Part shown: positions 15,684 to 49,041 of the stretch, one piece after another
How the letters are laid out: the number at the start of each line of letters is the position of its first letter
How positions within the stretch are numbered: the stretch's first letter is position 1
From: Spirochaetia bacterium
GTDB lineage: Bacteria; Spirochaetota; Spirochaetia; UBA9216
NCBI GenBank assembly: GCA_963675665.1
Contig: OY776510.1
Span: 3,008,001-3,072,000, forward strand
DNA length: 64,000 nt
Reading direction: 5' to 3'
Translations under genes and position numbers: made by a program
The notes under the pieces: model-generated
What the model saw: only the letters and a program-made list of their open reading frames with translations
Databases searched by the model: none
Told to the model about the DNA's origin: nothing

Positions 15684-18587
15684 TCAGGAAAACCCCGTAT
15701 CTGAATAATAATGCTGTTTCAGTATTGTTTTCCGGGAAATAAATACGGGAAACAGAAAAATACTCACAAAAAAAGATGCCGAAAGTCCCGATATAAGAAT
15801 TATTGCCAGATTTCTGAAAAAGGGATCTGCGGTAAAAAGCATGGGCACAAGGCCCCCGATGCTTGTAATTGTCGTCAGAAAAAGGCCGTTAAAACGCTGT
15901 TTCACAGCCTGAAAACTGCCGTTCCCAAGATTGTCCATGATCAGGATGCCGTTATTGATCCCCATGCCGGAAACCAGAATAAGCCCCAGAATTGTCTCTG
16001 TTCCGAGTTCAAGGCCCGCCATCCTGATGATGACAAGCGGAATTGAAAGGATGAACGGAAGCTGAAGAAGTATCACCCCGGCCTGTTTAAGCGATTCGCG
16101 TTCTATGCTGAGCATAAAAAAGATAAGAATAATTGCCAGGATAAATCTCAGCCACATCCTTCGAAATAACTCCTGTCTTTCGATAAGTTTTGACGATGGA
16201 ATAAAACTGTAGCCGGAGGGAAGTTCAATCCTGTCAAGTTCTTCCCATATCATGGCGTTTAGTTTTACGGGATCCATTTTACGGCACGTCACAGTAAAAC
16301 TTTCAGAATGCTGACGGTTCAGCCTGTTGATACGGGAGGTGTCGGTTGTCTCTGTAAATGTACCCAGTTGATCAAGCCTTGAGAATGAGTCCGGATCTGC
16401 CCCGGATATCTTGAGTGAACCGAGCTGAGAGGCGGTCAGTTTTTCATAGTCGGCAGCCATCACTCTCAGGTCTCTTTCCTTCCCCGAAAAATACCATTTG
16501 TCCGCGACCGGGCCCTGAAGGTTCCACCGCAGAAAAGATGCCGCGGTTGAAGCGGATAATCCGGCTGCCGCAAGGGTTTCGCTGTTCGGGATGAAATGAA
16601 AGGCCGGGGGAGCATCCTTGAAATGAAGCACGCCTTCAAGGACCCAGTTGTTTGCGAGTAAACCCTTAAGCGCTTTCCGCGAGATCTCTTTCAGTTTGTC
16701 CGTCCCGGCCCCCGTTACCGATATCGTAAGTTTCAGCCTGTCGCTCCGATCGCCGTCAGGTATATAGATAAATCCGCCGGGGATGGTATTCCCGAGAGCT
16801 TTAAGACGGGTGAGCATTGCGTTTCTGTCCGTTTTTTTTTCATTGAAGCGGACCGTGAGGTTACCGCCGCCCCGGCGCGAGGTTGACTGGACCGATATAA
16901 CCGGCTCTTCCGACTCTATATCACCGCACAAACTTCTTATTTTTGAATCGGAAGATTGCATACTCTCTCCCTCTTCAAGCTCTACCCCGGCGAAGATAAC
17001 AGGCGAATCGGCGGGAGTGTCGAGCTGTATCGGAAGGGCTGCAAGACATATAATCCCTGCAAGCGGAAGGATTGTGGACGCAGAAATGAATATCCTGCGT
17101 TTATAAATGCTGCCGGATACGGAAGCAATTCGTTCGGAAAAAGAAAGAAGCCTGCGGCGGAGCTTCGCAAGAAAGAAAATAAAGCGTCCGGAAGGCCGGG
17201 CCGTCGTTATTCTGTAAAACGGGGGGATAAAGATAAGCGAAACAACAAGCGAAACGGAAAGCATTACAGCAAGGGCTGCAAGCAGCTGCCTGAGTCCGGG
17301 AATCTCGCTGGTAAGAGAAATGACCGGCAGCATGGCCGCAAGCGTACTCATAGTCGACGAAACAAGGGGTTTTATTATCTCCCTTATAGTTCCCTCTGTC
17401 CGCTCAAGGGCATCGGTTGTAAGCAAAGCTGAATCGAGAATCATCCCGATTCCTACCGTAAGCCCCGCAAGAAGCCAGCGATCGGGCGAGAGACCGGCAA
17501 CTGCGAGCAGTCCCAGCGAAAGAAGAAGTATAACCGGCTGGGTGAAAAACAGCGTTATTACCCTGTAGTTACGCACCCTGAACAACAGCAGCATTGCGCT
17601 TGAAACAAGCATGCCGATAGCCAGGGCCGCGGCAATTTTTTTAAAGGAGTTCTCAAGCTCGGCGCCCCTGTCGTATACTATTTTAGCTTCATATCCCCTA
17701 TTTTCCCATCCGGCAGTTTCGTTTCTGAGGTGTCTTGAAATGCTGATAAGGTTGTTTGACGAGCTTTTGATATGAAGACTTACCCGTTCCCTGCTGTTAA
17801 GTCTGCTGATGTTTTCGGGCTCGCGGAAAGAAAATCCGACTTTGGCGATATCGTTGAGTTTTACCGCCTGACCGACAGGCAGCGCGCGCAGTTCGTTAAG
17901 CGATTTAATCCTCGCTTCAACCGACAGGGGGAAACGGTTTTTGCCGTTATCTATTTCTCCGGCGGTGCGGTATATATTTGAATTGCGAACAAGCGAAGCA
18001 ATGGAATCCGGGCTGTACCCGAAAGCTGCAGCCCTGTCTGTGTCGACGTTAACGTGTATCTCCGGCAGGGCCCCTCCCGAGATTTCTATCTCTCCCAGGC
18101 CCTCAATTCTTGAATATGAGGGTTTGATTTCGTTTTCAACAAGGGGCCTCAGTTCCTCAGTACTCAGGCTGTTGGAAAATGCAACAATGAAGATTGCCTG
18201 CTGATCGCTGCCCGAGTTGAATACCTGGGGTTTCTGGACAGCCGGATTATGCTGCGATATCCAGGCATAGCTTCGATCTATTCTCTCACGGGCCTCGATT
18301 AGAAACTGATCAATATCGGTTGATGAAGCCAGACGCAGATCAAGCCTTGAAAGCGAGAACTCGCTGCCTGATTTTAATTCCTCAATGCCGGCAAGTCCGG
18401 ATACTGCTTCTTCCATGGGAATGGTGATGCTTTTTTCAATCTCCTCTGCAGTTACGCCGTAAAATCTGGTGATTATTGAAAGACGTGCTGAATCGATATT
18501 CATTCCGCCCGGATCGGTATCGGAGAGAAACCATGCGGCGGCAAGGAGCAGGGCCGCCAGCAGCATTGAAGCGGCGGTTTTTGTCAT
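15684..18587 (-). CDS. Divergent RND (AcrB-like) permease, subunit 2
   Basis: AEEIEKSITIPMEEAV, INRLNRQ, two TM bundles; TM4 GMILDSALL, TM10 GMGINNGIL, TM11 QRFNGLFLTT (degenerate RxRPI). Confidence 0.85.
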   Translation of the reverse strand: MTKTAASMLLAALLLAAAWFLSDTDPGGMNIDSARLSIITRFYGVTAEEIEKSITIPMEEAVSGLAGIEELKSGSEFSLSRLDLRLASSTDIDQFLIEARERIDRSYAWISQHNPAVQKPQVFNSGSDQQAIFIVAFSNSLSTEELRPLVENEIKPSYSRIEGLGEIEISGGALPEIHVNVDTDRAAAFGYSPDSIASLVRNSNIYRTAGEIDNGKNRFPLSVEARIKSLNELRALPVGQAVKLNDIAKVGFSFREPENISRLNSRERVSLHIKSSSNNLISISRHLRNETAGWENRGYEAKIVYDRGAELENSFKKIAAALAIGMLVSSAMLLLFRVRNYRVITLFFTQPVILLLSLGLLAVAGLSPDRWLLAGLTVGIGMILDSALLTTDALERTEGTIREIIKPLVSSTMSTLAAMLPVISLTSEIPGLRQLLAALAVMLSVSLVVSLIFIPPFYRITTARPSGRFIFFLAKLRRRLLSFSERIASVSGSIYKRRIFISASTILPLAGIICLAALPIQLDTPADSPVIFAGVELEEGESMQSSDSKIRSLCGDIESEEPVISVQSTSRRGGGNLTVRFNEKKTDRNAMLTRLKALGNTIPGGFIYIPDGDRSDRLKLTISVTGAGTDKLKEISRKALKGLLANNWVLEGVLHFKDAPPAFHFIPNSETLAAAGLSASTAASFLRWNLQGPVADKWYFSGKERDLRVMAADYEKLTASQLGSLKISGADPDSFSRLDQLGTFTETTDTSRINRLNRQHSESFTVTCRKMDPVKLNAMIWEELDRIELPSGYSFIPSSKLIERQELFRRMWLRFILAIILIFFMLSIERESLKQAGVILLQLPFILSIPLVIIRMAGLELGTETILGLILVSGMGINNGILIMDNLGNGSFQAVKQRFNGLFLTTITSIGGLVPMLFTADPFFRNLAIILISGLSASFFVSIFLFPVFISRKTILKQHYYSDTGFS

Positions 18588-21500
18588 CCGGGACGGCCCT
18601 TAAGCCTTGTTTTTATTATATTTGGCAGAACAAGAAGAGACATCAGCGTTGATACAACGAGCCCGCCTATTATTGAGACCGCAAGAGAAGCCTGGCTTGA
18701 CGTTCCGAAAGGATCGATTGCCAAAGGGATCAGGGCCGTTATTGTGGTCAGGCTTGTCATCAGGATGGGCCTGAGCCGCGAGATTGTTCCGCGGTAGATG
18801 GCCCCGAGCGGCAGGGCCCCGCTTTGTTTCATCAAGCGGGATGCTTCCTCAAAAAGAAGAATCCCGTTGTTGACCGAAATGCCCATTACAACAAGGATTC
18901 CGAGGCTTGAATTGAGGTTGAGCGAATGTCCGGTCAGAAACAGTATTGCAATGATCCCTGAAGCGCCGGCCGGAATGCTGAGCATAAGAAGAAGCGGCAG
19001 GAAGAAAGATTCAAACTGGATTCCGAGACACAGGTAGAGCAGTATTACAGCCAGAATAAGCGTGCGGATTATCTGTGGAAGCTGGGACATCAAAACCGGG
19101 ACGTCCCGGGGTTCCGCTCCGCGGCTTTTAAGCAGACTGGTTATGTTCCTGCCTGTGTCGGAAGGGGTCCTTATTACAGCGAGATCCTTTCTCCCTTCCC
19201 GCAGCAGGTATGGAAGGGCCTGTTCATCCTGAATCCTGACAATCGAACTCAGGCGGACCGGAGCAGAACCCTGTCCGGGCATGTTCAACTGAAGAATGTC
19301 TCCGCGTTCGGAACGTTCGGATTCCATGATACGGAGTCGTACATCCGTCTCCTCTCCGTTTATCAGAATATTTGTCGGTATCTCTCCGTAGACGGCCTGC
19401 CCGATATGCTCGCTGAGATCGGAAAGACCTATGCCGTATGATGAAAGGGCCTTCCGGTCAGGGTAGACGAGTATCCGGGTCTTTCTATCCTCAGGCACCA
19501 GACGGACATCGGCAAGACCCCGGACTGCTTCCTCGGCGCTGCGCCTGACAATCCCGGGTTTGTCGCCGCTGATTACCCAGTCGGAATTCACGTTGATTCC
19601 TAAAAGATTTGCAAGGATATTTTCGGGGGGGCCTGTATTAAGAGTCCCGGTTTCCGGTGCTGTCAAGGAAGAAAGGCGCTTCTTTATAAAGGCTGTATCC
19701 GCATTTTTCCGGTGATTGATTTCAAGCTGGATTATCCCGGATGATTCATCGGTTGAGGCAAGATAGTATGGGTCGGAGCTTTCTCCTCCGGCCCAGGCAT
19801 TTACATGTTCTACTCCCGAAATTGTTGATATTTCGCCTGCAAGCTCTTCGGCAGTAAGCCTGACTGATTTAATGCTTGTTCCAGGCGGAAGCTTCAGACT
19901 GCCGCGGATTATCCCCTCGTTTATCGGGGTAATCACCTCGAGCGGAAGCTCCGGAAAGGGAATGACGGCCGCTGCACAGCAGAGCAGCGCAATAAGGCCG
20001 GCTATTGCCGGATGTTTCATCCCAGTTTTTACCAGCCTGATTATCGGTCTTGGGTTCCCCCGGTTTTTTATATCATTGATATCTTTGGGATTCAGGACAA
20101 GATAAAGAACGGGAATAAATGAAAGCGCCAGAAGAAGCGAGGATATCAGCGCGAAAATGACGCTCAGCCCCAGATCGGCGAATAACGAACCGGTTAATCC
20201 CCTGATAAACAAAAGGGGTAAAAACACTATAACGGTCGTAAGGGTAGAGCCTGCAAGCGAAGGGGCAAGTTCCCTCAGCGCCTGTGAAACAAGCGCTATC
20301 CGGGCTTCGGGCTCCTGAGAAGAAAGCCCGAGTCTGCTCATACGCTCGGTTACCACTATTGAATTGTCAACTACCATTCCGACTCCGAGGGCAAGACCTC
20401 CCAGACTCATCAGGTTAAGGCTTTTTCCGGTAAGAAAAAGCATGAGAACCGACAACAGCAGCGAGGAGGGCAGTGAAATCAGAAGAAGCAGGGCCCTCGG
20501 AAGATTGCGCATAAACAGCAGTATGATGACAAAGGCAAAGACTGCCCCCGATAACAGCGAAAAAGCGAGATCGTGCATTGACTGTTTAAGAGAAAGCGAA
20601 CGATCGGAGATAATATAAATATCAAGATCGCGTCCGAAGCTGCGGCTGATCTCCTCCAGTTCTCTGCGTATGTTTTCTGCCATTGCAGCGGGCGAGAATC
20701 CGGCAGTCCGTCTAATTTGCAGTCTCACGCCTTCTCTTATACCTGATCCGGAAGCCGAGAAAAAGACGGACGATTGTTCTTTTTGCCCCATTTCTATAGA
20801 CGCAACGTCTCTCAGCCGGATTGTCGCGGATGAAGAATCTCCATTCTGTTTCGGCAGAAAGATCCCGCCGAGTTCCATCAGACTTTGGGCCCTTGAACGG
20901 GTCTTGACCAGGTATTCGGTATTTCCTTCGGTTATTGTTCCGGCGGGATAGTCTATGTTTGCGCCTTCGAGTGCAGAGGCAAGCGCCGGAAGTGTATAGC
21001 CGAGGCCTGCAAGGCGCTTCGGATCAACCTCAACTTTAACCTCGTCTGTAAGGCCGCCGGAAAGCTGAATGGAACCGACCCCTTCAATCCTCTGAAGGCG
21101 CGAGCGAAGCTCCCGATCGGCAATTCTGCGGGCAAGCGAGAGCGAGCCGTTTTTCGGAAAGATTCCGAGGGTTATAATGGGCTGGTCTCCGGGATCAACA
21201 GCAAGGACGCGGGGCTTTGATGCGTCCGAGGGAAGATTGTGCCATGCCAGATCGATTACGCCCCGGGTTTCCAGCCCGGCTTCAGTACGATCGGTTCCCC
21301 ACGGAAATTCAAGTTCTATGAGCGATAGCCCGTCGCGCGAGATGCTTTTTATTCTTCTTAGTCCTCCGAGAGAGGACAGGGAATCTTCAAGAGGAATCGT
21401 AATAAGCCTGCGAATTTCATCGGCAGGAAGCCCCTGATAAGTTGAGATGACCGTCAGCCTGGGGACGGAAAAGTCCGGAAGAAAATCGGTGCGTATATTG

Positions 21501-21592
21501 AATAATGTCCAGATGCCTCCTGTGATTAAACCCGTCCAGAGCATGATTGTGCCGACGGGGCGTCTTAAAAAGAGCTCAGGAATCTTCATCAA
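18584..21592 (-). CDS. RND (AcrB-like) permease, subunit 1
   Basis: FLRRPV, LNLMSLGGLALGVGMVVDNSIVV, GISVNNGILL, SRLRPILMTSLTT. Confidence 0.93.
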   Translation of the reverse strand: MMKIPELFLRRPVGTIMLWTGLITGGIWTLFNIRTDFLPDFSVPRLTVISTYQGLPADEIRRLITIPLEDSLSSLGGLRRIKSISRDGLSLIELEFPWGTDRTEAGLETRGVIDLAWHNLPSDASKPRVLAVDPGDQPIITLGIFPKNGSLSLARRIADRELRSRLQRIEGVGSIQLSGGLTDEVKVEVDPKRLAGLGYTLPALASALEGANIDYPAGTITEGNTEYLVKTRSRAQSLMELGGIFLPKQNGDSSSATIRLRDVASIEMGQKEQSSVFFSASGSGIREGVRLQIRRTAGFSPAAMAENIRRELEEISRSFGRDLDIYIISDRSLSLKQSMHDLAFSLLSGAVFAFVIILLFMRNLPRALLLLISLPSSLLLSVLMLFLTGKSLNLMSLGGLALGVGMVVDNSIVVTERMSRLGLSSQEPEARIALVSQALRELAPSLAGSTLTTVIVFLPLLFIRGLTGSLFADLGLSVIFALISSLLLALSFIPVLYLVLNPKDINDIKNRGNPRPIIRLVKTGMKHPAIAGLIALLCCAAAVIPFPELPLEVITPINEGIIRGSLKLPPGTSIKSVRLTAEELAGEISTISGVEHVNAWAGGESSDPYYLASTDESSGIIQLEINHRKNADTAFIKKRLSSLTAPETGTLNTGPPENILANLLGINVNSDWVISGDKPGIVRRSAEEAVRGLADVRLVPEDRKTRILVYPDRKALSSYGIGLSDLSEHIGQAVYGEIPTNILINGEETDVRLRIMESERSERGDILQLNMPGQGSAPVRLSSIVRIQDEQALPYLLREGRKDLAVIRTPSDTGRNITSLLKSRGAEPRDVPVLMSQLPQIIRTLILAVILLYLCLGIQFESFFLPLLLMLSIPAGASGIIAILFLTGHSLNLNSSLGILVVMGISVNNGILLFEEASRLMKQSGALPLGAIYRGTISRLRPILMTSLTTITALIPLAIDPFGTSSQASLAVSIIGGLVVSTLMSLLVLPNIIKTRLKGRPG

Positions 21593-23132
21593 AAAGCTCC
21601 GCTGTCCAGTCTTTCGTCATCGAGTTTCCAAGACTGTCGGTAAGATCCGAATAAACCTGAAACAGGATAAGCCCGCTCTGCTCGGCATCATCGGTAAGCG
21701 ACGAGATCAGTCGAACTAAACCTTGATCAGCTTCGGGCGTCGGAACCGGGGACGAAGCTGCTGCAAGCGAATCGCCGGGATTGAATATTTGAAAATCAAG
21801 ATAACCGACTGATATGCAGGAATCGGCGGGGCTTATCAGAAAGTTTTCAACAAGGCTGAAGAAGGGAAGTTCCGCCCCGTCCGCAAGGCCGAAATAGTAA
21901 TCGATGTAGTAGGGATATTCGGTTGCGTCGCCGCCTGATGTATCGAGAATTTCATGACTTGATACAGCCGCTGAGGGAGTTTCAGCATCGTATATGCAGA
22001 ATCCTGTTCCGCCGTCGGGGGCCATGTTTACGCGCTCAAGCAGGGGGGGCGAAGATCCCCGACCGTCCACAAAAATGTAGTATATGTATTCTTCCTCTAT
22101 ACAGTTGTCCTGAAGATCGCTTAAGCCGGTTGATACGGCTATCCGGTATAGTTCATGCCAGAGAAGAGCGTCGTCAAAACTGATTATCATCTCTGCGGGG
22201 CTCGCTCCGTCATCGAAGCTGATATCAAAGTCAATGTCCGGTTCGACTGTAATTGCCGCCTCTGCGCTATCCCGGTTAACCTCTTCGGAAAAACCGAGTC
22301 GTATATCCCAGTCTTTCTCCCACCCGGTATTCACATTGATTTCCTGACCGTCCGGGGCCGAGGCAATAAGGTTCAGAGACCCTTCATCAGATGCCGCCGA
22401 AGTTATAAAAGGAGGCTCTTCGTCGCTGCCGACTCTGAAACTTGAGCTGTACTCTTCTGATAGAGCATAACCGTTTGTGCTTTTCAGATCGGTTGAGATA
22501 ACTATCGTGTATTCCTGTTGCCATTCAAGTTTTTCGGCAGGAGTAAATGTAAATATCGTCAGGTTTGCATCGAGCTTCGAGACGCCGGTAACGGACGGGC
22601 TTATTGAAAAAGCTGAGAGGACCGAATCAGGAGAAACCGGCGTGTTGAAGACAACAGCAACAGTTTTTTGCTGATCATCTACAGTTTCATCATCTGCGGG
22701 CGACACGGAAACGATAAGGGGCCTTTGCCCTCGCGCACCGATTCTGAACCTTGCCTGGAAGTCCTCGAACAGCGAGTTTCCTTGTGAATCTTCGGCGGAA
22801 GTAGTAAGTTTTATCTCGTAATCAGTATTGTCTTCCATCCGGGAATAGGGAACAAAGGTAAGTGCTGTTCCTTCGATTGATACCCTTCCGGGCACTTCCG
22901 TGCCCTCTGTGGTTATGCTGAAAGCGCCCTCCGTGCAGACCGGCTCGGGCTCCCTGTTGAATATCAGTTTCACATCCGAAATCTCCGATGGAGAACCCAA
23001 ATCTCCGCCGGGACTCCACGATACTATTTCGAGCGGCGAGCTGAGCATAGCGCTGCATGAAAAAAGAAGCGGAAAGACAACGAAGGTTGACAGAAATGTT
23101 TTTTGAAGGCTAAAAAAAGTTTTCATAATCAT
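21576..23132 (-). CDS. Lipoprotein with tandem bacterial Ig-like (Big_5/SbsA-type) domains
   Basis: Lipobox LLFS-C; repeats P-x-IVS-x-SP...FN/FS.PV...LTF.P...L...Y.I. Confidence 0.82.
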   Translation of the reverse strand: MIMKTFFSLQKTFLSTFVVFPLLFSCSAMLSSPLEIVSWSPGGDLGSPSEISDVKLIFNREPEPVCTEGAFSITTEGTEVPGRVSIEGTALTFVPYSRMEDNTDYEIKLTTSAEDSQGNSLFEDFQARFRIGARGQRPLIVSVSPADDETVDDQQKTVAVVFNTPVSPDSVLSAFSISPSVTGVSKLDANLTIFTFTPAEKLEWQQEYTIVISTDLKSTNGYALSEEYSSSFRVGSDEEPPFITSAASDEGSLNLIASAPDGQEINVNTGWEKDWDIRLGFSEEVNRDSAEAAITVEPDIDFDISFDDGASPAEMIISFDDALLWHELYRIAVSTGLSDLQDNCIEEEYIYYIFVDGRGSSPPLLERVNMAPDGGTGFCIYDAETPSAAVSSHEILDTSGGDATEYPYYIDYYFGLADGAELPFFSLVENFLISPADSCISVGYLDFQIFNPGDSLAAASSPVPTPEADQGLVRLISSLTDDAEQSGLILFQVYSDLTDSLGNSMTKDWTAELFDEDS

Positions 23133-24598
23133 TCTTCCTCCGCAAGGAATATGAATGATATTGCGTCAAGAAGGTACGAACCGCCGGGGGGTGCCGAATC
23201 GGATGAGCCGGCAGTAATTCTGAAGCGGTAGTAAACCGGCTCTCCCACAGAACAGCTTGCGAGATCTTCGTAAATTAATCGTATCCGTGTTTCACTTTCC
23301 CAGGCGGACGAATAGAGAGACGGGGCTGCAGTTCCGGGAGGGAAGACCGGAGACAGGCTTATGCACGAAACGAATTCCCGGCGTTCGTTTATTGATTCGG
23401 AGGGGAAGCCTTCGGCAAGGTTGACATAGAAATAAAGGGTGTCCGTGCCGTAGTAATCAAGATTCGGAATCGTAATATAACCGTCGTTGTTGAAGTCTCC
23501 TGCATACAGGACCATATTGGGCGGGATATTGTCTTCGATTTCCACACTCACTATTTCCTGGGCCGGTATTGACGGTGTGAAATACAGGCTCCAGTTGCTG
23601 GTAGTGGAATTCCCCCTTGTGTCCATCAATCCTTCTTCAATAATCAGTTCATATTCCTGATCAGGAGGAAGTTCTTCGTCGATGTAATACAATGCTGTCT
23701 GGGGATCTATGGCCACGATATATCCGTCTATAGAGGGGGTGAGCGACAGCTGACGTCTCAGGCTTGAGAAATCAATGCTTTCCGAAAAGGTTAGCGCAAG
23801 ATGCTGCCCGAGCAGCAGATCATCAGCGGAAAGGGCTGTCAATACCGAATAACTGCCGTCGGCGTTGTCGCCGGCAGGATAGATCCCGGTCACCGATGGA
23901 GCATCGGTATCTGCCTGGACAAGAAAGCTTCCGCTGCTTTTCCGGGGAAGGGGGATTCCCGCCTCGTCCGTTACCTCCGGAGATATACTCCAGTTGTAGC
24001 AGCACAGATTAATCCAGGCGTTGTCGGGAGTGATTGTTACAACAGTAGAATTTTCGTTCCAGCTGCAGTCGAATTCTGCAGACGGCCTGAGGGTGAACCC
24101 GTCGTCAAACGAATTCCTGTCTATCGGTTTGCTGAATGAGAACACAATGGTGTTGTCGACATCGACAATCGCCGTATTATCCGGAACTGTCGAAACGAGA
24201 ACCGGCGGAAGCTCGTCGGTTTGATAGTAAAATGGAATATCTATATATTTGGTAAAGCTTCTGCCGTCTGCTGTTTTCAAATCGCCGAAGATCTGCATCC
24301 GATACCTGTGCCCCGGCTGCATCTCTTTATGCGGAGCAAATACAACCGAATCGGTTTCCCAAAGAAAGTCTCCGTCCGCATCGCCGTCCGGGCCTGCAAG
24401 ACTGAATATCGATTCAAACGAGAAGCGGTCAGGCTCTTCGGAGAACCGGACAGTTATATATTCCTCCGGGCCGAAAATTTGTTCGGGTTCCGACGGATCC
24501 GGTTCAAGCTCCAGATCCCCGAGCCATATAAGTGCGCAGGAAAAAAACAGCAAAGGCAGGGCGCTGATGAATAGAACCGAAAGGGATTTATTGTACAT
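23129..24598 (-). CDS. Second lipoprotein with tandem Ig-like (Big_5/SbsA-type) domains
   Basis: Lipobox LFFS-C; PPVLVSTVP...FSFSKPIDRNSF, APSVTGIYP...LTFSESID. Confidence 0.82.
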   Translation of the reverse strand: MYNKSLSVLFISALPLLFFSCALIWLGDLELEPDPSEPEQIFGPEEYITVRFSEEPDRFSFESIFSLAGPDGDADGDFLWETDSVVFAPHKEMQPGHRYRMQIFGDLKTADGRSFTKYIDIPFYYQTDELPPVLVSTVPDNTAIVDVDNTIVFSFSKPIDRNSFDDGFTLRPSAEFDCSWNENSTVVTITPDNAWINLCCYNWSISPEVTDEAGIPLPRKSSGSFLVQADTDAPSVTGIYPAGDNADGSYSVLTALSADDLLLGQHLALTFSESIDFSSLRRQLSLTPSIDGYIVAIDPQTALYYIDEELPPDQEYELIIEEGLMDTRGNSTTSNWSLYFTPSIPAQEIVSVEIEDNIPPNMVLYAGDFNNDGYITIPNLDYYGTDTLYFYVNLAEGFPSESINERREFVSCISLSPVFPPGTAAPSLYSSAWESETRIRLIYEDLASCSVGEPVYYRFRITAGSSDSAPPGGSYLLDAISFIFLAEEE

Positions 24599-28495: not shown

Positions 28496-28744
28496 TCACT
28501 GATGTATAATCGCTTTTTTATCTGCTGCTTCTGAAAATAAAACAATGATTGTAAAAAAATCAGATTTCAGATTACAATTGGGAAATACGGCTGATATTTT
28601 TATATATCCTTTACAAGGAATACAAAAGAAATGAACTATAATGAATTCAACGGTTTTTCCGGGTCTCAAATCGAGACGCAAAATGAATATGCGGGTGCGG
28701 AGAATACGTGTTTCCGGATCGTGATTACGGTTGTTTGCTACCTG

Positions 28745-28773: not shown

Positions 28774-28779
28774 AATAAT

Positions 28780-28800: not shown

Positions 28801-28835
28801 TAGAATGAATGCCTTGTAATCGGAGAGGGTCGGAT

Positions 28836-42500: not shown

Positions 42501-45500
42501 ATCCAGAGCACGAAAGTCGGCGACATGGACGTGCTCGAAAACTTCGGAGAAATGACCGGAGCAGCCATAGCCGCAGCCGGAGCCGACGTGCTTGCAGGTG
42601 ATTTCAGCAGCCTGGAAACAGATCCTGGCGCGCTTCTGTCGGAGGTAGTAGACTTTGAGCTGTTGGGGACCCTGCTTGAAAACGCGCAGAACCTGAACGA
42701 CTCGATAAACGATACGGAGAACGTAATATTTACAGCCGCTGCGCCGGACAGCTTCACAACCGCCGACAGCCTGCAGGCGATAAAAGACTTTCAGTCTGTT
42801 CAGAATGAAGAGTATGAAAAGCACCTTGCCGAACTGGAACTTGAGCGTATGCTGGAACAGGTTGAGGATGCCGAGGAGAGCTTTAATGAGAGTATCGACT
42901 CCGCCAATAAAAGCCTGGACAGCAATATAAATCAAACAATGAGAAACGACGGCTACACGCGCAGCGGCGGACGCTATGAAAGAGAGCTTGTGGTAGGGGC
43001 AACAATAGGCGGGTACGTATATGAAGACGGTTATGTGAGCACATACGATGATTACCTCCCTGAAAATATTGATTTCGGAAGCGAATTGAAGGATGCCCGA
43101 AACAATGTTGCGAACCTTGATTCGAAAGGCCTGCAGGGGCTCGTTGCAAGGGCCATGGAGAACATACGGGAGCAGCTGAAACGGATATTCGGTTCGGACG
43201 ACGAGACGGAAAACGCCGAAATGCTTGTGGAGCTTGGTTTTCCGGTGACTGTGGAAAAAGATAAAGAAGGCACAGTAAAATATAAAAGAGAAGATACCAA
43301 TCACTCCATACTTGAGAGCGTAGCAGACTGGGTAGGGGAGCATCTTGATTTGAATATGGATACAAAAGAAAACTCTCCCGAAATATCACCGGGATTATTC
43401 GGAATACATGTAGGCTACGCGCCCGAGTTTGCCGATACCGCCGATACAGGCAGGGAATGGAACGACGAGGGGCAGCTGAAAGACGAAGGGCTTGGCGAAA
43501 TGGGAAGAATCATGGGTGAGTTTATCTTCAACAAAATGAAGGAAGGAGCCGGCTGGGCCGAGGTGAACATGCCGCATTACAAGAAACCGTTGTGGGAAGG
43601 CGAAATTTTCGGAATAGAAGCGCCGAGCGCTGCGGACCTGACGAGCCTTGCGGTTACTATCTGCACCGCCGGAGCTGCAAGCGGCGCAGGGGCCATACTT
43701 TCAGCGACAATAAACCTGAGCGATGATTTTGCGCTATCTGCAATGGACATAGTCACCGGAGACAAAAGCCTGCTTGAGGGAACGCTCGACTTTGGGAAAA
43801 AAGCATTTGTATCACTGGCAGGAGCAGGGATTGGCGAAGGCGGAGATGCTCTAAGCAGTACCCTGGATCTGGACTTGGGAGGGGAACTTCTGCTTGGCAC
43901 AGGAGAGCAGATAGTAACAAACACCGCCTCTGGAGCAATAAACGCCATAGAATACAGCGAAGAAGGAGGGTGGAACTACAACTGGAACACCCTTGTGCAG
44001 AGCGTGGCCGGAGAAGGTGCAGTAGCCGGGTATGTAGGAAGCGCCGCAGGAACGGCTGCAACATTCGGCTTGAACGAGTTGAATAACAGCATCGATGCCA
44101 ACGGATTTTATCTTGGAGATCTCAAAATAGATCAGGAACAAATAGGCCGTGTAAACTCGATGATAGGCGGTATTGCCGGTGAAGCGGCAGGTTCGCTTGT
44201 AGACAAGGATTTCTCGCTTAATGTTCTGAATCTGGCGGATATAATGGCGCTTGCGGGAGTTGAGGAAGAGAACACCAGTGACCTCGGCCTGTTTGAAGTG
44301 CATATGGGTTTTGACGAAGACGGAAACTTTACAAGCCGCAACAAGATAGGCACCGGCGGGGCCCAGGTAAGCTACCGCGATATTTTGTTTGATGCAGATT
44401 CAGTATTTAATAATATGGCAAGAATAAAGAGCATAAACGAAGACACTGCGGCAGCCGCGGCAAACCGCGACGTGATGCTGGGGATAACCGACAGAAGCAT
44501 AGGTGTTGATGAATTGACATTTGATGGAGCCAGCGAGGTAAGCGCGTTGCTTAGATCGCAGCTTGAAGGGACCCGAACCGAACAGAGTTACAAGAATATA
44601 AACGCATCGATGCATTCCATGACCGGTGTAATAAACAGCGGCTATTTGTCTGAAGGCAGTTCCGGGTATATAGAAGGTGATTCGGCAATGGCTGTAATGA
44701 TGCGTGAGCTTCTTGAAAATGACAAAAGCGGCATCAGCCATGAAAACCTGTTCGAAATGTTCGGCACCGAAGAAGGGCGCGAGCAGTTTGCAGAAGCAGT
44801 CCTTGATGCCAACCTGCTGCTTGCCTACAATCAGGGTGACATAGGCACTGATGAGTTTATGGGCAGTGATATCTTTAATACAACAGGAAGCTTCAGCCTT
44901 GCCTATGAGATGTATTCCGGAGCATACGGAGAAGAAACCTCGGCAGTAGTAACGCTTGCACGGATGTTTGAAAGCGGCAAAGCGTATGCGGGAACAATCA
45001 CAGATGCCGATATACAGGCGGATATAATTTCACAGAAGGAAGCCCTGGTAAATGAATATTTCAAGGAAGATATTGCCAATGCCGATGCTCTTTTGGGAGG
45101 AAATTTCTTTAATGCTGAATCGCATATTAATGAGGGAATAATATCGAACAGGATGGAACAGATAGGTGATGAAATGGCGGCAATAGCAGCGGCACATCTG
45201 GCCCATCAGTCATTAGCTTCCGGTGTAACCGGATATGACTCAAATACCATAACATATAAGAAAACGGAGCTGGATGAACTGAAGAAAAATTGGCTTGATT
45301 CTGCAATTGAACTGTCAAAAATAGCAAATGATAACGGCATCAAGTTTAATTATGAATATGCTTTAATAAGCAAGAACCCTGTCATGAATGAGGCCGGAAC
45401 GGCGGCATCACCGGTATATGGGGGAACAGGATTATATACACTGTATGGATGGGAAGTAATAACCCCGGAAATGGCGGAAGCGACCGGAAGAGCTGTATAC

Positions 45501-46109
45501 AGTAACAGATTACACGAAGCATATGATATTTCCAAAACCTGGGCGGAAGAACAGCAGTATGGAACTGATGAATACTTCACAGCTCCGGAAGCCGGAAGCT
45601 TTGATATTAGCTGGAATTCGGGAGGTGCCGGGATTGAGATAGTCTTAACATCAAGCGATGGTGCATATCAGCACCGATTAGGGCATAATTTTATAAACAG
45701 CATTGATGCTATGACGGAGCTGTTGATATTAAACGGTTCGACCGAAGTGGCCGCCGGAACTGTTATCGGGGAGTATCAGGATTATAAGACAAACGAATCT
45801 ACGGGATCTCATTCGCATTGGGAAGTATACAGAAATATGAGTGAAAGTCTTTTTACAAATTATATACAAATGGATAACAATGATTGGTTAACGGAAAGAT
45901 ACGGCAGTAATCCCTTTACGGCATCGGAAAGAGCGCAGAACCTGAGCGGTTTATCGGAACCGGGCACATATGAATATAATATAAACCTGACAAAGAAATA
46001 CGCTGCAGAGGAATACTGGAACTACAGAAGCAATCAGGAATTCGGTATAGAGCTTTCAACCAGGACAGAATTTTTATTCTATTTAAGGATGATGAATCAA
46101 TGGATGTAA
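33576..46109 (+). CDS. Giant (4177 aa) secreted acidic coiled-coil protein with central hydrophobic hairpin and C-terminal M23 peptidase-like domain; putative polymorphic toxin
   Basis: Sec-type signal; long heptad-like helices; hydrophobic stretch FFIASIPMF..AALGGA; C-terminal HEAYD (HxxxD), APEAG, HRLGH, VAAGTVIG, STGSHSHWEV (HxH). Confidence 0.85.
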   Translation: MKGVRSLFTVLLCFYSFILISNVISQDSEYNHADISFDNVLFRSYLDTADKRKSSEQWLDYARFGLESALSSWEKEIILLLGDDFDLSDLRDDAETELDEILKERYAEWLNNNFFNSVDPPSLGALSSEIVALNGQYLYETDKNGNITYKTTVNYSDVYTTDATGNETLVQKGEKTLWVEGVKSKIAELLDAWSQKMTTAFSELRASVTELALLEELEQDYLRDYESYQDNYRDELYRLYNTEQSRFTRLRLYDQYSLEHQSGQETASNISNELIAATRAELNSKLEALVRGLNAQAASGESGNGIVNAEDWRESFSTLLTLGMNSWDEAEQELLMKRIEWEQDAAGEVSDGEEAWADAFRQLSEKRTEWMNEYRRTLQEGNLLWAEESLELEEAIAKAVSEIDESIANSGASLQSRIDNLVGMLLQSVNMMRTARTSWEYWMDRFDEGEKGSFDTRGIDFDPDSMLAVTEEVKNRLDEEKLNEKYSTIAAYSDYDQEAMKHAMAWIDDKYGIYTEGLWSEPLSYSDKLDIFNSYDPYKYNIPYYGLNPYYLYNVRNQYFSAIDDLFSEMAVLGSVPQTGSDVYDEAVYWIDMFRTYQEYALDARQGLAETYGIVVFDNASLQTAFNGDELNDALLDNDLLFDQDSWESIYLDEYQVELLKARAYMQYWRKQQEIARAVYDYAADNSSTKENAGVTLGRLADAKAAYEEVLAEYSDCLDRLSNISTDLETLQADMQTIQEEIDGYQQQLDDVRSQYNSAITDLDLGNAEYLAGQYREYYIRLLESMGMTGDSEESPSTALEEYLLAASEYGLEDRISLVSNRIVGLLSGGENTNLDGSMFNPETASLSELGRRMQTVSDAGFISGPSTDELFGFEGNEEAIDQFNAYLSDKLLLPMSDYRHDKLIEYFTAYTDADTEEIEKSRLLWQMQLIAEEVRNENSMNYELRLAELRLLSTDDFSSWAQQHFGDEAADADPEGLIGSAEESGLTGITEAVVRDLQVYEEILELYQQQADSGGGEFVIYEWGSAPGDTPPELSKQQALQILWDYRGGDTDEETASDIFGVVESLGALVSWLESLGSLDDDISVLESAVLNPDEALGQQYLKACLSGRRNLATDMGDMYSVIYSDSVSRQKYTKGFAELLSENIDYAPCLSAYGYEKSRAGLIEMLAQFGIIDADTLIFHAPEAVWEVRGFSTVEEVAGFFTGLDKAASGLQLPEYLAEIFEGYRGELKDYFAIRTASAFFGEFSGDPGPVNEKIRLVTNSMSSLGALTGTLQKSSDQSVKLLALAVSDDVSDELREEADFRLIETAGFDLAADALDTDGFSGAGAEWNELFDNYISAVRTGLGQEDGIEDYRSAMTDRAAELWELSIALADPDSVDPDSAPEQWLESYSAMIWNSFDFDEALDRITGTDSTINISQLEQLRIIDQLMPETAGDFPSDVELEWLYEGNEVLREVDSMIVLGLPELWAGDSFDIAETVKSRYYSDEDISIMEDMLVLSIEESEAGVTTVDKAVQLWNDQFDGGLADGSIDGLLKAFCGLGLINPAVEAAGEYSAEYGYEDLLDELLAGAVLSEDDLAILEEAVLNPAEALEARLDKLAELDAEALSGEELYWNLAWNIRSDAAEDDYSRTAARGARIFDDIEAAGVISNWISSFDEAGFESYSEELADLFDSQMSRIAGLAQSPAGGVYASIAACGIGEVLVEQAGYSDADAADFVNWFMTKKGIDEAFDRESLTDYLSLEPDARFYSVLADYPDAASHYLKKQIAEGAFTSTTLSVLLDSVNLADETEAELVEIQGILDDVEVYNELLHGDFEDFLDERYGSEEQKRTAREIYMRFMGSAEVQWDDAVFMLSSGCGAGAREILDNLSFNRTRGSNLSGLNPGSGTGSNEVFLNEALMTIYEKLYERDDALTAELSALQSERDLQVRAADYLGSLETIDSDNWRSFLNDECLSSEDDELNLVPASTVDYNYSDYTRNLQINNNDGDPVFQNFDSLTLFSGTGNDQLNIILEAANSYLDYAAYLTAAINSWDDGTISATETMRTLHEGLGSADGSDFRNSLESKSYAEINQAYSYEIDASVENGYKEARSEFYNLTAKIESIKESLSNFGYRRARLVRMAAMGSSEQLAELRPLNDEISALEADIDAAQAEWQELIDGADGYKTLEEEYAGVYAQTKAALEELNVLKQEYSTARAIYEYASAGYLSIDDEILSEFDPVETGAEDDSTAPEDDETEVESGITGGTMVASDVDLGEQTADQVYRDALLATINKVSPAERLVYINEKLARAGAANDALETIINGGSVTGSIYSKDEVYRAYFDNYLETFRESLVLNKINLVLNKAIARQETVTREALSDWNTAISESYGTPGYLDSEGNAIVPAGLDSCSIVQNADGSRDINWDGAGSNAETFRQYFEANENSETGSSDFQNDLMLWLEKVSGIMNGSGARDLFTTWAMALKWEEFQAAGAPGDINDNFWTDFLNKNGEGDLDREGARTLLITEWQNAFNKVNSCTGENKRLYSFYKLLDKGGIMQLNTETTTGDSFETFDLLGENESVILANQYLSDEYNQDANNFFIASIPMFSMAVAYFAAATLALAIPFNWVAAIILFALGTAAALGGAHMVGEGNAKKAAADYIQNKIVKPAEYNSTKFMLNFKQNTSLILDKKQVYEEEFAKLQRMEGEADGDEILTDEQRIGLLKISTIEAFNNEGEDLHALLFQGGLVSETGNTDADTAALEALFGDYQEMMDQSEKDESVNSSLFISALEEESQDYKQITARELNDYLTGEDGVAREQVEAEEVYRSAYYQYLAEEISLEEFEEAAESAFGNPAFSVREHMLRLYEQQAGIAEIIMGSDQFNAAISAELLESRELLLCGSGSRKGIYDYKMSNYREVRMYDLQMLQLEMNEKYRNWENRMRAISARGELEWSAGERKLTRKYTEWQKETKRLYNRQSEAWDDKYLDFLSDKQAWLDAVMIQSTKVGDMDVLENFGEMTGAAIAAAGADVLAGDFSSLETDPGALLSEVVDFELLGTLLENAQNLNDSINDTENVIFTAAAPDSFTTADSLQAIKDFQSVQNEEYEKHLAELELERMLEQVEDAEESFNESIDSANKSLDSNINQTMRNDGYTRSGGRYERELVVGATIGGYVYEDGYVSTYDDYLPENIDFGSELKDARNNVANLDSKGLQGLVARAMENIREQLKRIFGSDDETENAEMLVELGFPVTVEKDKEGTVKYKREDTNHSILESVADWVGEHLDLNMDTKENSPEISPGLFGIHVGYAPEFADTADTGREWNDEGQLKDEGLGEMGRIMGEFIFNKMKEGAGWAEVNMPHYKKPLWEGEIFGIEAPSAADLTSLAVTICTAGAASGAGAILSATINLSDDFALSAMDIVTGDKSLLEGTLDFGKKAFVSLAGAGIGEGGDALSSTLDLDLGGELLLGTGEQIVTNTASGAINAIEYSEEGGWNYNWNTLVQSVAGEGAVAGYVGSAAGTAATFGLNELNNSIDANGFYLGDLKIDQEQIGRVNSMIGGIAGEAAGSLVDKDFSLNVLNLADIMALAGVEEENTSDLGLFEVHMGFDEDGNFTSRNKIGTGGAQVSYRDILFDADSVFNNMARIKSINEDTAAAAANRDVMLGITDRSIGVDELTFDGASEVSALLRSQLEGTRTEQSYKNINASMHSMTGVINSGYLSEGSSGYIEGDSAMAVMMRELLENDKSGISHENLFEMFGTEEGREQFAEAVLDANLLLAYNQGDIGTDEFMGSDIFNTTGSFSLAYEMYSGAYGEETSAVVTLARMFESGKAYAGTITDADIQADIISQKEALVNEYFKEDIANADALLGGNFFNAESHINEGIISNRMEQIGDEMAAIAAAHLAHQSLASGVTGYDSNTITYKKTELDELKKNWLDSAIELSKIANDNGIKFNYEYALISKNPVMNEAGTAASPVYGGTGLYTLYGWEVITPEMAEATGRAVYSNRLHEAYDISKTWAEEQQYGTDEYFTAPEAGSFDISWNSGGAGIEIVLTSSDGAYQHRLGHNFINSIDAMTELLILNGSTEVAAGTVIGEYQDYKTNESTGSHSHWEVYRNMSESLFTNYIQMDNNDWLTERYGSNPFTASERAQNLSGLSEPGTYEYNINLTKKYAAEEYWNYRSNQEFGIELSTRTEFLFYLRMMNQWM

Positions 46110-47119
46110 TGATGAAGAGAAGAATAATTGCGATACTGATATTTGGGATATTAATAACGGCAACTGCATTTTGTGAGTATGAGATAAGGATTGTCAAGCC
46201 GCTGCCCGCGAAATATATTATGGAGTCTTATATCTGGCTCAATGATGAAGAGATTGTCTATAATATATCCGGGCATAATCCGAGTCAGTTGAGAAGATTG
46301 AATATAATAAACGAAGATGATGAATTATTGCTTGATGGGGAAGCAAGAGATGAAGATTACCATATTTTCTCTCTTTCCCTGATTAGTGTTGATAAGGAAT
46401 CACTAATTATAGGTATAAGCAAAGGAAGAAGTACTTATATTAACTCCTATTTTTTTAATTTAAGAACTAAAAATCTCGAAGAAATTAAATATAATTATCA
46501 AAATAATCCAGGCATTAAGTATCAAAATAATTTAGGGTTTAATGAGAATTTATTTGAATTTGGTGCGGGACGAACAGACGCAGGTTTTACTTACATTCAA
46601 AAATATCCTGAAACCGGAAGGGTGGTAAGATATGACTATACATGGGAAGAATCAGGCATTCAGAGGGTTGTTAGTAATACTGAATTTTTTAATGTCTCCG
46701 ATGTACTGGATGATAATCTGCTGATAACTCATGTCGAAGCCAATTTGGGAGTCAATTATCTGACGCATTTTGACGGCGATGGATTTTCCCGAGCAGTAGT
46801 CGTTCCAAATAGCGACTCGCAGAGGAGTTTAAAAACCAATTGGGGAGCATATTTTCTTAAAGACGGCAATATACTTTTCGGTGAGGATATGAACGATGAT
46901 ACCGATTATTTTGATCCGGATGAGGCATATTGCAGGTTGAGGATCTGTAACCGGGAAGGGGATACTATTTATACCTTTGATGATTTTTTGTATATGAGAG
47001 ATGCCTATCAATATTTTACAATGAGTCCGGACAGAACAAAGATAATAATACAGGGTTATGATATGACCATGTGGCCGCCGCAGACAAAAGCTTATCTGCT
47101 GGAGATAATATATAATTAA
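46109..47119 (+). CDS. Exported beta-rich protein, putative cognate immunity protein
   Basis: ATG overlaps the toxin stop (TAATG); signal MMKRRIIAILIFGILITATAFC; WLNDEE, SPDRTKII; paralog of 47363. Confidence 0.75.
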   Translation: MMKRRIIAILIFGILITATAFCEYEIRIVKPLPAKYIMESYIWLNDEEIVYNISGHNPSQLRRLNIINEDDELLLDGEARDEDYHIFSLSLISVDKESLIIGISKGRSTYINSYFFNLRTKNLEEIKYNYQNNPGIKYQNNLGFNENLFEFGAGRTDAGFTYIQKYPETGRVVRYDYTWEESGIQRVVSNTEFFNVSDVLDDNLLITHVEANLGVNYLTHFDGDGFSRAVVVPNSDSQRSLKTNWGAYFLKDGNILFGEDMNDDTDYFDPDEAYCRLRICNREGDTIYTFDDFLYMRDAYQYFTMSPDRTKIIIQGYDMTMWPPQTKAYLLEIIYN

Positions 47120-47362: not shown

Positions 47363-48274
47363 ATGAAATTTAAAAAATGGCTCATACTTTTATTATTAAA
47401 CATTATATTTTTAACAAGTTTTACAAATGCATATGAGATACGACTGGTAAGGGAAGATCCCCTCCATGTGATAAGATATCTGGGCTGGATCTCGAACCAT
47501 GAGGCGGCTTATTGTATTTACGGAACAGATAACATTGTTGTATACAAGAACCTGCTTGGAGATATGCCTTATGAGAAGCTGAAAGAATTTCCTGAACGAG
47601 TTATATATGTTGGTGATGATAATACAAAATATGAATTATTTATAGAAATTGGTGATGATGTTTATATATTAGATAAGGAAATTATGAAAATAGAACTATT
47701 ATCAACTCCTGATGGATATAAATACAGCGGGGGGCGTCAGTTACCTGAAAATATATATACATATAATATAAATACTTCACCTGGAAAGCTGTCTTTAAAC
47801 AGGGCTGATTATAAGAATTACGGGCATCTTGAAGCAGATATCAGGGATTTTGAACACTATAAAATTTTGAAGAAATTAGGTGTATATAAAAATGAAGAGA
47901 GCCCCGGATATTTAATAATCGGAAGTTATGGAACAGATTTTTATGAAGTTCAATTTGAATATCCGGAAATTAAGGCTGTAATTCCTATTGTTGAAGAATA
48001 TGGGTATGTTGATATAAAAAAACTGGATGAAGACATGTATCTCGGAATGTTCTACAGGGAAGATGTGGAATCAGATGATGAATATTCGAGGTGTTCGCTG
48101 CGGGTTTTTAACAGAGAAGGTGAAGTTTTTCTCGACTATAAAGACTATCTGCTTGTAAACCACCACGGTATTGGTGAAAGCTTTTATCTGAGTCCAGATA
48201 GGAGGTATATAATTGCCACCGGTTCAAAGACCCTGGGAAACCATAAAACGCTGATATTTGAATTGATAAAATAG
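47363..48274 (+). CDS. Second exported beta-rich protein, putative orphan immunity paralog
   Basis: Signal peptide; AYEIRLVR / CSLRVFNREG / YLSPDRRYII match EYEIRIVK / CRLRICNREG / TMSPDRTKII of 46109. Confidence 0.75.
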   Translation: MKFKKWLILLLLNIIFLTSFTNAYEIRLVREDPLHVIRYLGWISNHEAAYCIYGTDNIVVYKNLLGDMPYEKLKEFPERVIYVGDDNTKYELFIEIGDDVYILDKEIMKIELLSTPDGYKYSGGRQLPENIYTYNINTSPGKLSLNRADYKNYGHLEADIRDFEHYKILKKLGVYKNEESPGYLIIGSYGTDFYEVQFEYPEIKAVIPIVEEYGYVDIKKLDEDMYLGMFYREDVESDDEYSRCSLRVFNREGEVFLDYKDYLLVNHHGIGESFYLSPDRRYIIATGSKTLGNHKTLIFELIK

Positions 48275-48699: not shown

Positions 48700-49041
48700 C
48701 AGCCGAGAAGATGTCAGACCGGGTATGTTTCCTCCGTATCTCGAGCTGGACGTTGTAAAGGATGCCTGAAGACCGGTGTTCAAGATTGTCGAACCCGGTT
48801 TCGGCAGGCTTTTCAAAAGTCCGGTCCGTTCGGGCGGTTGAGAAAGATGAAGAGCGTAACCGACAATGCAGAGGTGCTCAGAAATATCAGAAATGGTTTA
48901 TCCACTGCTTCAGAAAATTAAAACTATGATTGTAAAAAAAACGGCTTTCAGCTTACAATTGGAAAATGAAGCTGATTTTTTCGCAAATGTTTTACAAGGG
49001 ATAAAAGAGAAATGAATAATAAAGATTTCAATGGCTTTTCC
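48700..49041 (-). pseudogene. Collapsed remnant of a second MFP-TolC-TPR operon plus its upstream region
   Basis: Hand alignments: 48700-48763 vs 25601-25664 (52/64), 48775-48830 vs 26008-26063 (44/56), 48831-48895 vs 28415-28479 (51/65), 48897-49041 vs 28517-28660. Confidence 0.85.

Follow-up and report, generated by a model that had tools for sequence, protein, structure and literature searches.

A giant polymorphic toxin-like protein in a spirochaete, its exported immunity-like neighbours and its genetic linkage to an RND-type operon

We analysed a 64,000-nucleotide stretch of the genome of a Spirochaetia bacterium of lineage UBA9216 (assembly GCA_963675665.1, contig OY776510.1, positions 3,008,001 to 3,072,000; hereafter the window, from whose first letter all coordinates are counted). 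Within it, an eight-gene operon for an RND-type pump diverges from a gene for a predicted exported protein of 4177 amino acids, here called the giant, which is followed by genes for smaller exported proteins. We propose, with a probability of roughly 0.55, that the giant is one member of a spirochaete-wide polymorphic effector/immunity system whose genes are linked to those of a dedicated tripartite envelope machine of the RND type. The proposal builds on the observed gene content, the polymorphism of the giant, the cassette arrays of its relatives, the covariation of tip and downstream gene, synteny and co-occurrence, from which we infer toxicity, immunity and an export or display role for the operon. 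The giant, its parts and its immediate neighbours are as follows.

33576..46109, plus strand: giant polymorphic protein, 4177 amino acids, net charge -483, with an N-terminal hydrophobic signal (predicted signal peptide)
41295..41450, plus strand: mid-protein hydrophobic hairpin, residues 2574-2625, located by a hydropathy scan
43323..44375, plus strand: most conserved module, residues 3250-3600, Gly/Ala-rich (alignments A1 and A5)
44358..46106, plus strand: variable C-terminus, residues 3595-4177; first a helical domain, then a divergent domain resembling M23/LytM (about 45585-45839)
46100..47119, plus strand: candidate immunity protein, 339 amino acids, with a signal peptide; translationally coupled, overlapping the stop of the giant by 10 nt
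47363..48274, plus strand: paralog of the 339-residue protein, 303 amino acids, with a signal peptide; possible orphan immunity gene (32% identity over 65 residues, E 5.7e-6)

The open reading frame (ORF) and its N-terminal hydrophobic signal bear out a first-pass annotation of the window, made from the letters alone, which had described a 4177-residue signal-peptide protein followed by coupled immunity-like paralogs; the 10-nt overlap, the similarity between the two downstream proteins and their signal peptides agree with the second part of that description. The conserved module closes with the motif G-L/F-x-E-x-H-x-G ... G-x-G-G-x-x-V-S, and the polymorphic junction follows closely. One homolog (P0002) is 89% identical to the giant over residues 1091-3594 and has no detectable similarity beyond residue 3594. 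The break falls directly behind this motif. At the end of its tail, P0002 has an M23 motif of canonical appearance (read by eye, unscored). Matches in seven relatives stop at residues ~3420-3600 of the giant. Base composition changes along the same stretch, from a GC content of 0.505 in the body of the giant to 0.438 in the tip and 0.356 and 0.337 in the downstream genes (genome, 0.433).

Relatives also carry arrays of orphan cassettes, which include the conserved junction module. In genome G351, a giant of 3699 residues is followed by five shorter ORFs that are 70-90% identical to its body up to residues ~3339-3445 and then diverge, and by a sixth (602 residues) with only 34 residues in common with the body. 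A signal-peptide protein is encoded behind each cassette, and the array is bounded by a transposase of the Mutator family. Related tips within this array (966, 627 and 602 residues) are paired with related downstream proteins (39-43% identity). Genomes G345 and G238 have cassette arrays of the same pattern. As a separate observation, only cassette-size genes (774-1360 residues) and no full-length giant were found in the closed genomes G238, G360, G357 and G345; the genes among these that were read have no signal peptide, and some have a significant M23 match and an exported downstream protein.

The gene directly 3' of the giant encoded an exported protein in every genome compared, and its identity changed with the tip. 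It is a 164-residue lipoprotein in G003, an RCC1-repeat protein in G014, a 365-residue lipoprotein in G012 and the 339-residue protein in the window. Where two giants are alike in their last 800 residues (54% between G001 and G004), the downstream FGE-sulfatase lipoprotein is common to both as well (65%). The downstream gene thus appears to covary with the tip. The 339-residue protein has no Pfam or NCBIfam family and, besides itself, a single homolog match (77% identical); PADLOC gave no match to the immunity-like genes or to those of the inserted island described below. Elsewhere, the candidate immunity proteins are all exported and of diverse folds (FGE-sulfatase, RCC1 repeats, leucine-rich repeats (LRR), SH3_3 and an F5/8-type fold, 'NADase_transloc'). 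Their genes lie at these positions.

Candidate immunity genes in other loci: L015:6223-7074, L026:5008-5913, L027:5776-7011, L055:17051-17827, L053:7528-8808, L050:11064-12413, L051:8579-9679

A sharp junction, a conserved body and an exchangeable C-terminus are the defining genomic features of polymorphic toxin systems and, judged from sequence, this family has them. With the covariation and the cassettes, they agree with the earlier view of the giant as polymorphic-toxin-like, with immunity-like genes downstream. We regard a polymorphic toxin/immunity nature of the giant and its downstream genes as likely.

The body of the giant has no recognisable family. No Pfam or NCBIfam family matched at E<=0.01 over the whole protein, in line with the earlier statement that it has no RTX, RHS/YD or two-partner secretion (TPS/FHA) signature; five segments searched in Pfam to E 10 gave only chance-level matches. 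Searches of the Protein Data Bank (PDB) by sequence and profile with the N-terminal domain, the junction module and the C-terminal 477 residues returned no significant match, and an AlphaFold model of the junction module (351 residues, 15 sequences) was uninformative, at a pLDDT of 45.3. NCBIfam left five of six homologs of the giant without a match and gave the sixth, P0005, a chance-level one (E 0.003; 16.2 bits, cut-off 300); four distant giants matched 0 families. A double hydrophobic segment comparable to the hairpin was present in 7 of 8 homologs examined.

Close relatives are few, with six proteins at E<=0.001 among 1690 scored candidates of a 5.8-billion-protein index. The species-representative genomes held one related locus, on a contig of a metagenome-assembled genome (L003), and the giant is present in one copy in its own genome. 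A profile of residues 2880-3600 (alignment A1) reached further. It matched 70 of the 251 genomes sampled from the class and 69 of 401 sampled from the phylum, where the profile is less sensitive; the matching open frames were mostly 2000-4580 residues long. Homologous loci also occur in genomes that we tentatively label Treponema-like and Leptospira-like. The spread is patchy even at close range (4 of 10 genomes of the same family), which fits an accessory trait.

The tip itself is probably a divergent M23/LytM-type endopeptidase behind a helical domain, an assignment made because of a motif alignment, a structural profile match and the M23 scores of cassettes elsewhere. A HMMER scan of residues 3561-4177 against 1.84 billion representatives yielded 15 proteins at E<=0.001. 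One of these homologs, P0015, scores 44.9 bits for M23, and three others 16-20 bits. The zinc-binding and catalytic motifs of M23 enzymes are HxxxD, H and HxH. All of them are present in the tip, where LHEAYD, GHN and STGSHSHWEV align with EHRAVD, WHN and PHLHLEY of P0015. A profile search of the PDB with the tip gave TagE, which we take to be an M23 peptidase, as its best match (E 0.0085). Three cassettes in other genomes exceed the Pfam cut-off for M23, two in G345 (54.2 and 34.0 bits) and one in G238 (44.8 bits). The helical domain was also found (residues 178-310 of the 617-residue query segment) in P0017, a 491-residue protein with an eCIS_core domain (PF13699, E 6e-26), which suggests a module traded between delivery systems.

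On the other side of the giant, positions 15684-28495 of the minus strand hold eight ORFs, each overlapping the next by 4-52 nt in the ORF list of the window. They are transcribed in the order TPR protein, 155-residue lipoprotein, outer-membrane factor (OMF), periplasmic adaptor (MFP), Big_5 proteins of 489 and 518 residues, and RND permeases of 1002 and 967 residues. The genes are listed here from the last to the first.

15684..18587, minus strand: RND permease A, 967 amino acids, divergent paralog, last operon gene; PF00873 E 3.9e-94, NCBIfam RND_permease_2 226.7 bits against a cut-off of 1250, motif ILDSALL in transmembrane segment 4 (TM4)
18584..21592, minus strand: RND permease B, 1002 amino acids; PF00873 E 7.7e-166, NCBIfam 439.6 bits against a cut-off of 1250, TM4 motif VVDNSIV, TM10 motif SVNNGIL
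21576..23132, minus strand: Big_5 immunoglobulin (Ig)-like lipoprotein 1, 518 amino acids; PF13205 E 1.4e-31 in three stretches, lipobox LLFSC
23129..24598, minus strand: Big_5 Ig-like lipoprotein 2 (Ig2), 489 amino acids, used as the operon marker; PF13205 E 5e-21, lipobox LFFSC
24588..26006, minus strand: periplasmic adaptor (MFP), 472 amino acids; TIGR01730 187.2 bits against a cut-off of 94.9, HlyD_D23
25955..27394, minus strand: TolC-like OMF, 479 amino acids; PF02321 E 2.6e-37 in two stretches
27366..27833, minus strand: small lipoprotein, 155 amino acids, without Pfam or NCBIfam match; lipobox FLCSC
27830..28495, minus strand: TPR protein, 221 amino acids, first operon gene; TPR_19 and TPR_16, E ~3e-10

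The ORF list and the Pfam families of the products (ACR_tran twice, Big_5 twice, HlyD_D23/HlyD_3, OEP and TPR) agree with the operon of eight genes, divergent from the giant, that had been described from the letters. RND permease, adaptor and OMF are encoded together, the arrangement that marks an RND tripartite efflux system. Four of the products have a lipobox: the MFP, the 155-residue protein and the two Big_5 proteins. This genome has one copy each of the genes for the Ig proteins, the TPR protein and the small lipoprotein. Both permeases score far under the NCBIfam cut-off for RND multidrug subfamilies (NF033617 and NF000282). Each has a single Asp in TM4 (D-S or D-N) and Asn at the TM10 position where AcrB has Lys. 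These residues hint that protons may be relayed in another way than in classical drug pumps.

Synteny ties this operon to the giant. The two adjoin each other directly in L003, G004, G014 and G012, across giant identities of 22-51%. In L003, the genes for the TPR protein, small lipoprotein, OMF, MFP and Ig2 diverge from the start of the giant across a gap of 127 bp. The full operon stands adjacent and divergent in G004, of the same genus (gap 273 bp), and in G014, of another family, where the giants are 23-25% identical to ours. In G012, of another family again (22% giant identity), the stretch compared runs from OMF to second RND permease, and these six of the eight genes were matched beside the giant. 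Orthologs of Ig2 are 56%, 49%, 29% and 24% identical in L003, G004, G014 and G012 (tblastn), the small lipoprotein is kept in L003 (47%) and G004 (43%), and the TPR gene is kept beside the giant in L003, G004 and G014. A second layout, with the operon upstream of the giant on the same strand, occurs in G351 and others.

Co-occurrence of the giant profile with a profile of Ig2 (alignment A2) extends this link. Among the 251 class genomes, 61 had both markers, 9 the giant only, 22 Ig only and 159 neither, with an odds ratio of ~49; this count treats related genomes as independent, overstates the strength and p-value of the association and to that extent weighs against our proposal. The markers lay <=25 kb apart on one contig, divergent or co-directional, in at least 27 genomes and, among the matches listed, 30-39 kb apart in at least two more. 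In G464, G588 and G457 they are >260 kb apart, yet both are kept; in the remaining 29 co-positive genomes they are on different contigs or outside the matches listed. Two genomes (G537 and G566) have one operon and two giants.

Frequent occurrence of one partner without the other had been named in advance as evidence against a link. This check did not refute the link: such genomes are a minority, and mostly weak matches or fragmented assemblies. The giant-only set comprises two closed genomes with cassette-size frames (G238, G360), three weak matches (G438, G466, G476) and four fragmented assemblies (G017, G465, G525, G536). The Ig-only set consists of 9 strong and 13 weak matches (E>1e-15), the latter possibly generic Big_5 proteins. 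G357, like G238 and G360, lacked a match to the Ig operon. In the phylum sample, 10 genomes had an Ig-RND operon and no match to the giant profile, and in 5 of them an ORF of >2300 residues stands beside the operon; three were cut by contig ends. The earlier claim that these genes travel together holds, resting on synteny and co-occurrence across class and phylum and not on the remnant at 48.5-49.0 kb from which it had been drawn. Some functional coupling of giant and operon is, in our view, highly probable.

How would such a system work? On our proposal, the giant would be exported by Sec into the periplasm and held in the inner membrane by its hairpin. Behind the junction motif it would carry an exchangeable module, here the helical domain and the divergent M23/LytM-type peptidoglycan endopeptidase. 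The 339-residue exported protein, and perhaps its 303-residue paralog, would be the cognate periplasmic immunity, blocking the tip in the producer and its siblings. The operon would not be a drug pump; it would encode the giant's partner device, which transports, anchors or displays it at or across the outer membrane, and the tip would thereby reach the cell wall of a neighbour. We rate a role of the operon as an outer-membrane translocation or display device, suggested by genetic linkage, as somewhat less likely than not, since RND pumps are not known to handle proteins. The boldest version, in which a proton-driven RND pair with its adaptor and OMF delivers the hairpin-parked giant with the help of the Ig lipoproteins and TPR protein, would be a protein-delivery route without a described parallel in any diderm and would amount to a new type of secretion system with its own polymorphic toxin family; we hold this to be doubtful.

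Several observations weigh against our proposal. We know of no RND pump that moves a protein, and a Sec signal with a hairpin could equally mean a resident protein of the inner membrane or periplasm. No orphan cassette was found in the giant's own genome. The giant is not beside the operon in G001, G003 and G024; in G001 and G003, of the same genus, the two are on different contigs, with at least 3-18 kb upstream of the giant free of operon genes. The closed genomes G238 and G360 have cassette-size genes and neither a match to the Ig marker nor a full-length giant, and a 40-kb stretch around the cassettes of G238 contained no operon gene. Conversely, the nine class genomes with a strong Ig match have no giant, although all are fragmented (90-690 contigs), and of the 10 phylum genomes with an operon only, G400 and G301 had no large ORF within 14-20 kb. 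The evidence for the tip is also mixed. The M23-like domain of the first-pass annotation is backed by the motif alignment with P0015, while Pfam scores the last 477 residues of the giant at 17.3 bits for M23 (PF01551, E 0.0054), under the cut-off of 28.7, and gives no M23 match with the whole giant. The AlphaFold model of the tip is mediocre (pLDDT 64.8), and Foldseek returned nothing for it at E<=0.001, with lysostaphin on top at E 0.2 and LytM entries also leading. Pfam assigned no family to the last 800 residues of five other homologs; most tips therefore lack a recognisable toxin fold.

Linkage and co-occurrence demonstrate a functional tie and not its direction, and the giant could be a polymorphic toxin whose operon is no exporter. 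The operon would then protect or service the producer, perhaps by clearing the periplasm of stray toxin fragments or wall breakdown products or by stabilising the envelope where the giant sits, and delivery would occur otherwise, for example by lysis, vesicles or outer-membrane contact. RND pumps are known for small molecules and not for proteins, and the exported immunity-like proteins imply a producer periplasm in need of protection. Yet a specific immunity gene already stands behind each tip, leaving no obvious need for a second, general protection of eight genes. Two Ig-like lipoproteins and a TPR protein are more typical of protein handling than of efflux, and in G537 and G566 a single operon has two giants to serve. 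We consider this explanation unlikely, though it is the strongest of the competitors.

Without any antagonism, the giant might instead be a resident periplasmic scaffold, anchored by its hairpin and remodelling its own peptidoglycan, with the downstream proteins as regulators or inhibitors and the RND machine as a co-functioning transporter. Its Sec signal and the hairpin of 7 of 8 homologs suit such a role, as does its huge, acidic body without a Pfam or NCBIfam family, and M23 enzymes often remodel the cell's own wall. A scaffold would hardly be expected to swap its tip between relatives 89% identical in the body, to leave orphan cassette arrays beside a transposase, to covary with its downstream gene or to be spread so patchily (4 of 10 family and 70 of 251 class genomes). 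Tip swaps, cassettes, covariation and patchiness characterise conflict systems and not housekeeping genes, and we judge a resident scaffold improbable. Chance proximity of a common efflux pump for drugs or metals to a large surface protein is barely credible as an account of the operon. Its RND, MFP and OMF components belong to standard families and a TetR gene adjoins it in this genome, but the adjacency is kept down to giant identities of 22-25%, across families and in two layouts, and this synteny already contradicts chance. The TetR gene belongs to an insertion absent in kin, and the RND proteins are far under the multidrug cut-offs.

Among known systems, the giant is most readily compared with polymorphic toxins such as CdiA/CdiI, Rhs and MafB, as described in the main text of Zhang et al. 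2012 (PMC3482391). Like them, it has a conserved body, a sharp junction and an exchangeable C-terminus, with a covarying immunity-like gene directly 3' and arrays of 5'-truncated cassettes in relatives. Unlike them, it has no TPS/FHA, RHS/YD, PAAR, LXG/WXG, MafB-N or HINT element and no Pfam family in its body; it carries a Sec signal and a mid-protein hairpin, its junction motif is neither VENN nor PxxxxDPxGL, and its downstream proteins are exported, not cytoplasmic. The routes given in that main text are type II, V, VI and VII secretion, PVC, Tc-toxin (TcdB/TcaC), PrsW-peptidase and phage-packaging (MuF) systems. An RND/MFP/OMF/Ig-lipoprotein operon is not among the trafficking contexts named there, and the words 'RND', 'TolC' and 'M23' do not occur in it.

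Other systems share single aspects. Peptidoglycan-hydrolase effectors of type VI secretion systems, lysostaphin and other secreted M23 bacteriolysins likewise pair a wall-cleaving activity with a signal-peptide protein encoded just downstream, whereas the tip analysed here has a divergent M23 domain (17.3 bits) and rides on a Sec-exported protein of 4177 residues. Two-permease pumps of the MdtABC-TolC type and AcrAB-TolC resemble the operon in its adjacent RND paralogs, lipoprotein adaptor and OMF; they differ from it in that this operon also includes a TPR protein and three further lipoproteins (the small one and the Big_5 pair) and is tied to the giant. The single TM4 Asp and the missing TM10 Lys set its permeases apart from AcrB, and their scores lie under the multidrug cut-offs. 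In type I secretion of giant adhesins (LapA/LapBCE, SiiE), an acidic protein of very large size is similarly linked to an MFP and an OMF, but there the energiser is an ABC protein in place of the RND pair. The giant, moreover, starts with a Sec signal and lacks both RTX repeats and a secretion signal at its C-terminus.

The TIGR04388 family (Lepto_longest) also consists of very large spirochaete proteins, and the first-pass annotation had suggested a comparison. It led to no assignment: TIGR04388 did not match the giant at E<=0.01 (cut-off 45 bits) or anything in its genome at E<=0.001. In Leptospira-like genomes it weakly touches the N-termini of three giant-profile-positive frames of 4500-4582 residues (E 3e-4 to 8e-5, under cut-off), and its matches above cut-off are at other loci than the giant-profile frames. 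At one of those, in a Leptospira-like genome (G143:C1:1343252-1388847), TIGR04388 scores above cut-off on a frame of ~2300 residues, and its C-terminal third also matches five more frames (707-2348 residues) within 45 kb, an arrangement that resembles a cassette array of a different giant family.

In the window, operon and giant are separated by ~5.1 kb, and the organisation of the giant's far side is altered as well. The features concerned are these.

28496..28700, unstranded: region U (copy 1), upstream of the TPR gene, and a stub (ATG at 28631) that resembles the opening ~10 codons of the gene for the sigma-54 activator
28809..33395, plus strand: inserted island, encoding a TetR regulator, a protein with ATC_hydrolase and transglutaminase domains, a 117-residue ORF, a TIGR04255-family protein, and ORFs of 177 and 204 residues
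48700..49011, unstranded: rearrangement scar made of ~80% identical DNA pieces, among them region U (copy 2); borders directly on the gene for the sigma-54 activator
49012..50442: sigma-54 activator gene, 476 amino acids, with PAS, AAA+ and HTH domains

L003 and G004, where operon and giant are only 127 and 273 bp apart, lack the block from the TetR gene to the AT-rich segment at this place; the block is therefore an insertion, as the first-pass annotation had surmised. Its AT-rich part (31179-33575) has a GC content of 0.273 against 0.433 for the genome and looks horizontally acquired; it encodes the TIGR04255-family protein (84 bits) and the ORFs of 177 and 204 residues, both without a family, like the 117-residue ORF of the island. 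Beside the TetR regulator, positions 29546-30682 encode the 378-residue protein with ATC_hydrolase and transglutaminase-core domains. A 121-residue ORF at 28496-28861 is probably not a gene, as it overlaps the start of the TetR gene, has no homolog in the loci of kin and sits in the duplicated promoter region.

The sequence at 48.5-49.0 kb had been taken for a decayed second copy of the locus, with a toxin piece next to pieces of the MFP, TolC and TPR genes. The operon-derived pieces are real. They are ~80% identical, with internal deletions, to parts of the MFP gene (25601-25664), the MFP/OMF junction (25988-26063), the 5' end of the TPR gene (28415-28479) and the sequence upstream of it (28517-28630), and the similarity extends into the first ~10 codons of the sigma-54 activator at 49012, which the stub at 28631 matches. 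The toxin piece did not survive scrutiny, being a 10-residue match (9 of 10 identical, E 0.09 against a 1.1-kb target) with no counterpart at the DNA level. We therefore rejected a second toxin locus: the pieces are a duplicated segment of operon 5' end, promoter and activator start. In a 28.6-kb contig of a related organism (run X5), the activator sits between operon and giant, and the intact upstream region joins its 5' end, 24,135 nt upstream of the giant's start. This intact arrangement, together with the duplicated pieces, identifies the remnant as a rearrangement scar. The activator apparently once lay between operon and giant until a rearrangement placed it behind the giant, leaving 48700-49011 as its trace. 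The activator may regulate the system, the duplicated operon promoter region standing in front of it. A search for the -24/-12 pattern of sigma-54 promoters found none upstream of the TPR gene or of the giant, the sole match lying within the scar at 48894, and an Rfam scan of 28400-49100 gave no match. The flanks of the window (1-15683 and 50443-64000) were covered by the ORF list and two Pfam matches, to the sigma-54 activator and to a C45 acyltransferase/hydrolase at 50711-51748.

Our literature search, whose coverage left out subscription journals and supplements, found no description of this family or of its linkage to the operon. An RND-type tripartite machine as the dedicated partner of a polymorphic toxin is absent from the routes listed in the main text of PMC3482391. 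Even on a cautious reading, the locus belongs to a large, phylum-wide protein family that has no Pfam or NCBIfam model, and it offers a conserved junction motif for tip exchange together with new candidate cell-wall toxins and exported immunity proteins of FGE-sulfatase, RCC1, LRR, SH3 and F5/8-type folds. Should the coupling reflect export or display, the range of cargo ascribed to RND machines would grow, and spirochaetes would gain a contact weapon of their own. With loci in genomes tentatively labelled Treponema-like and Leptospira-like, the system may matter for competition among host-associated spirochaetes.

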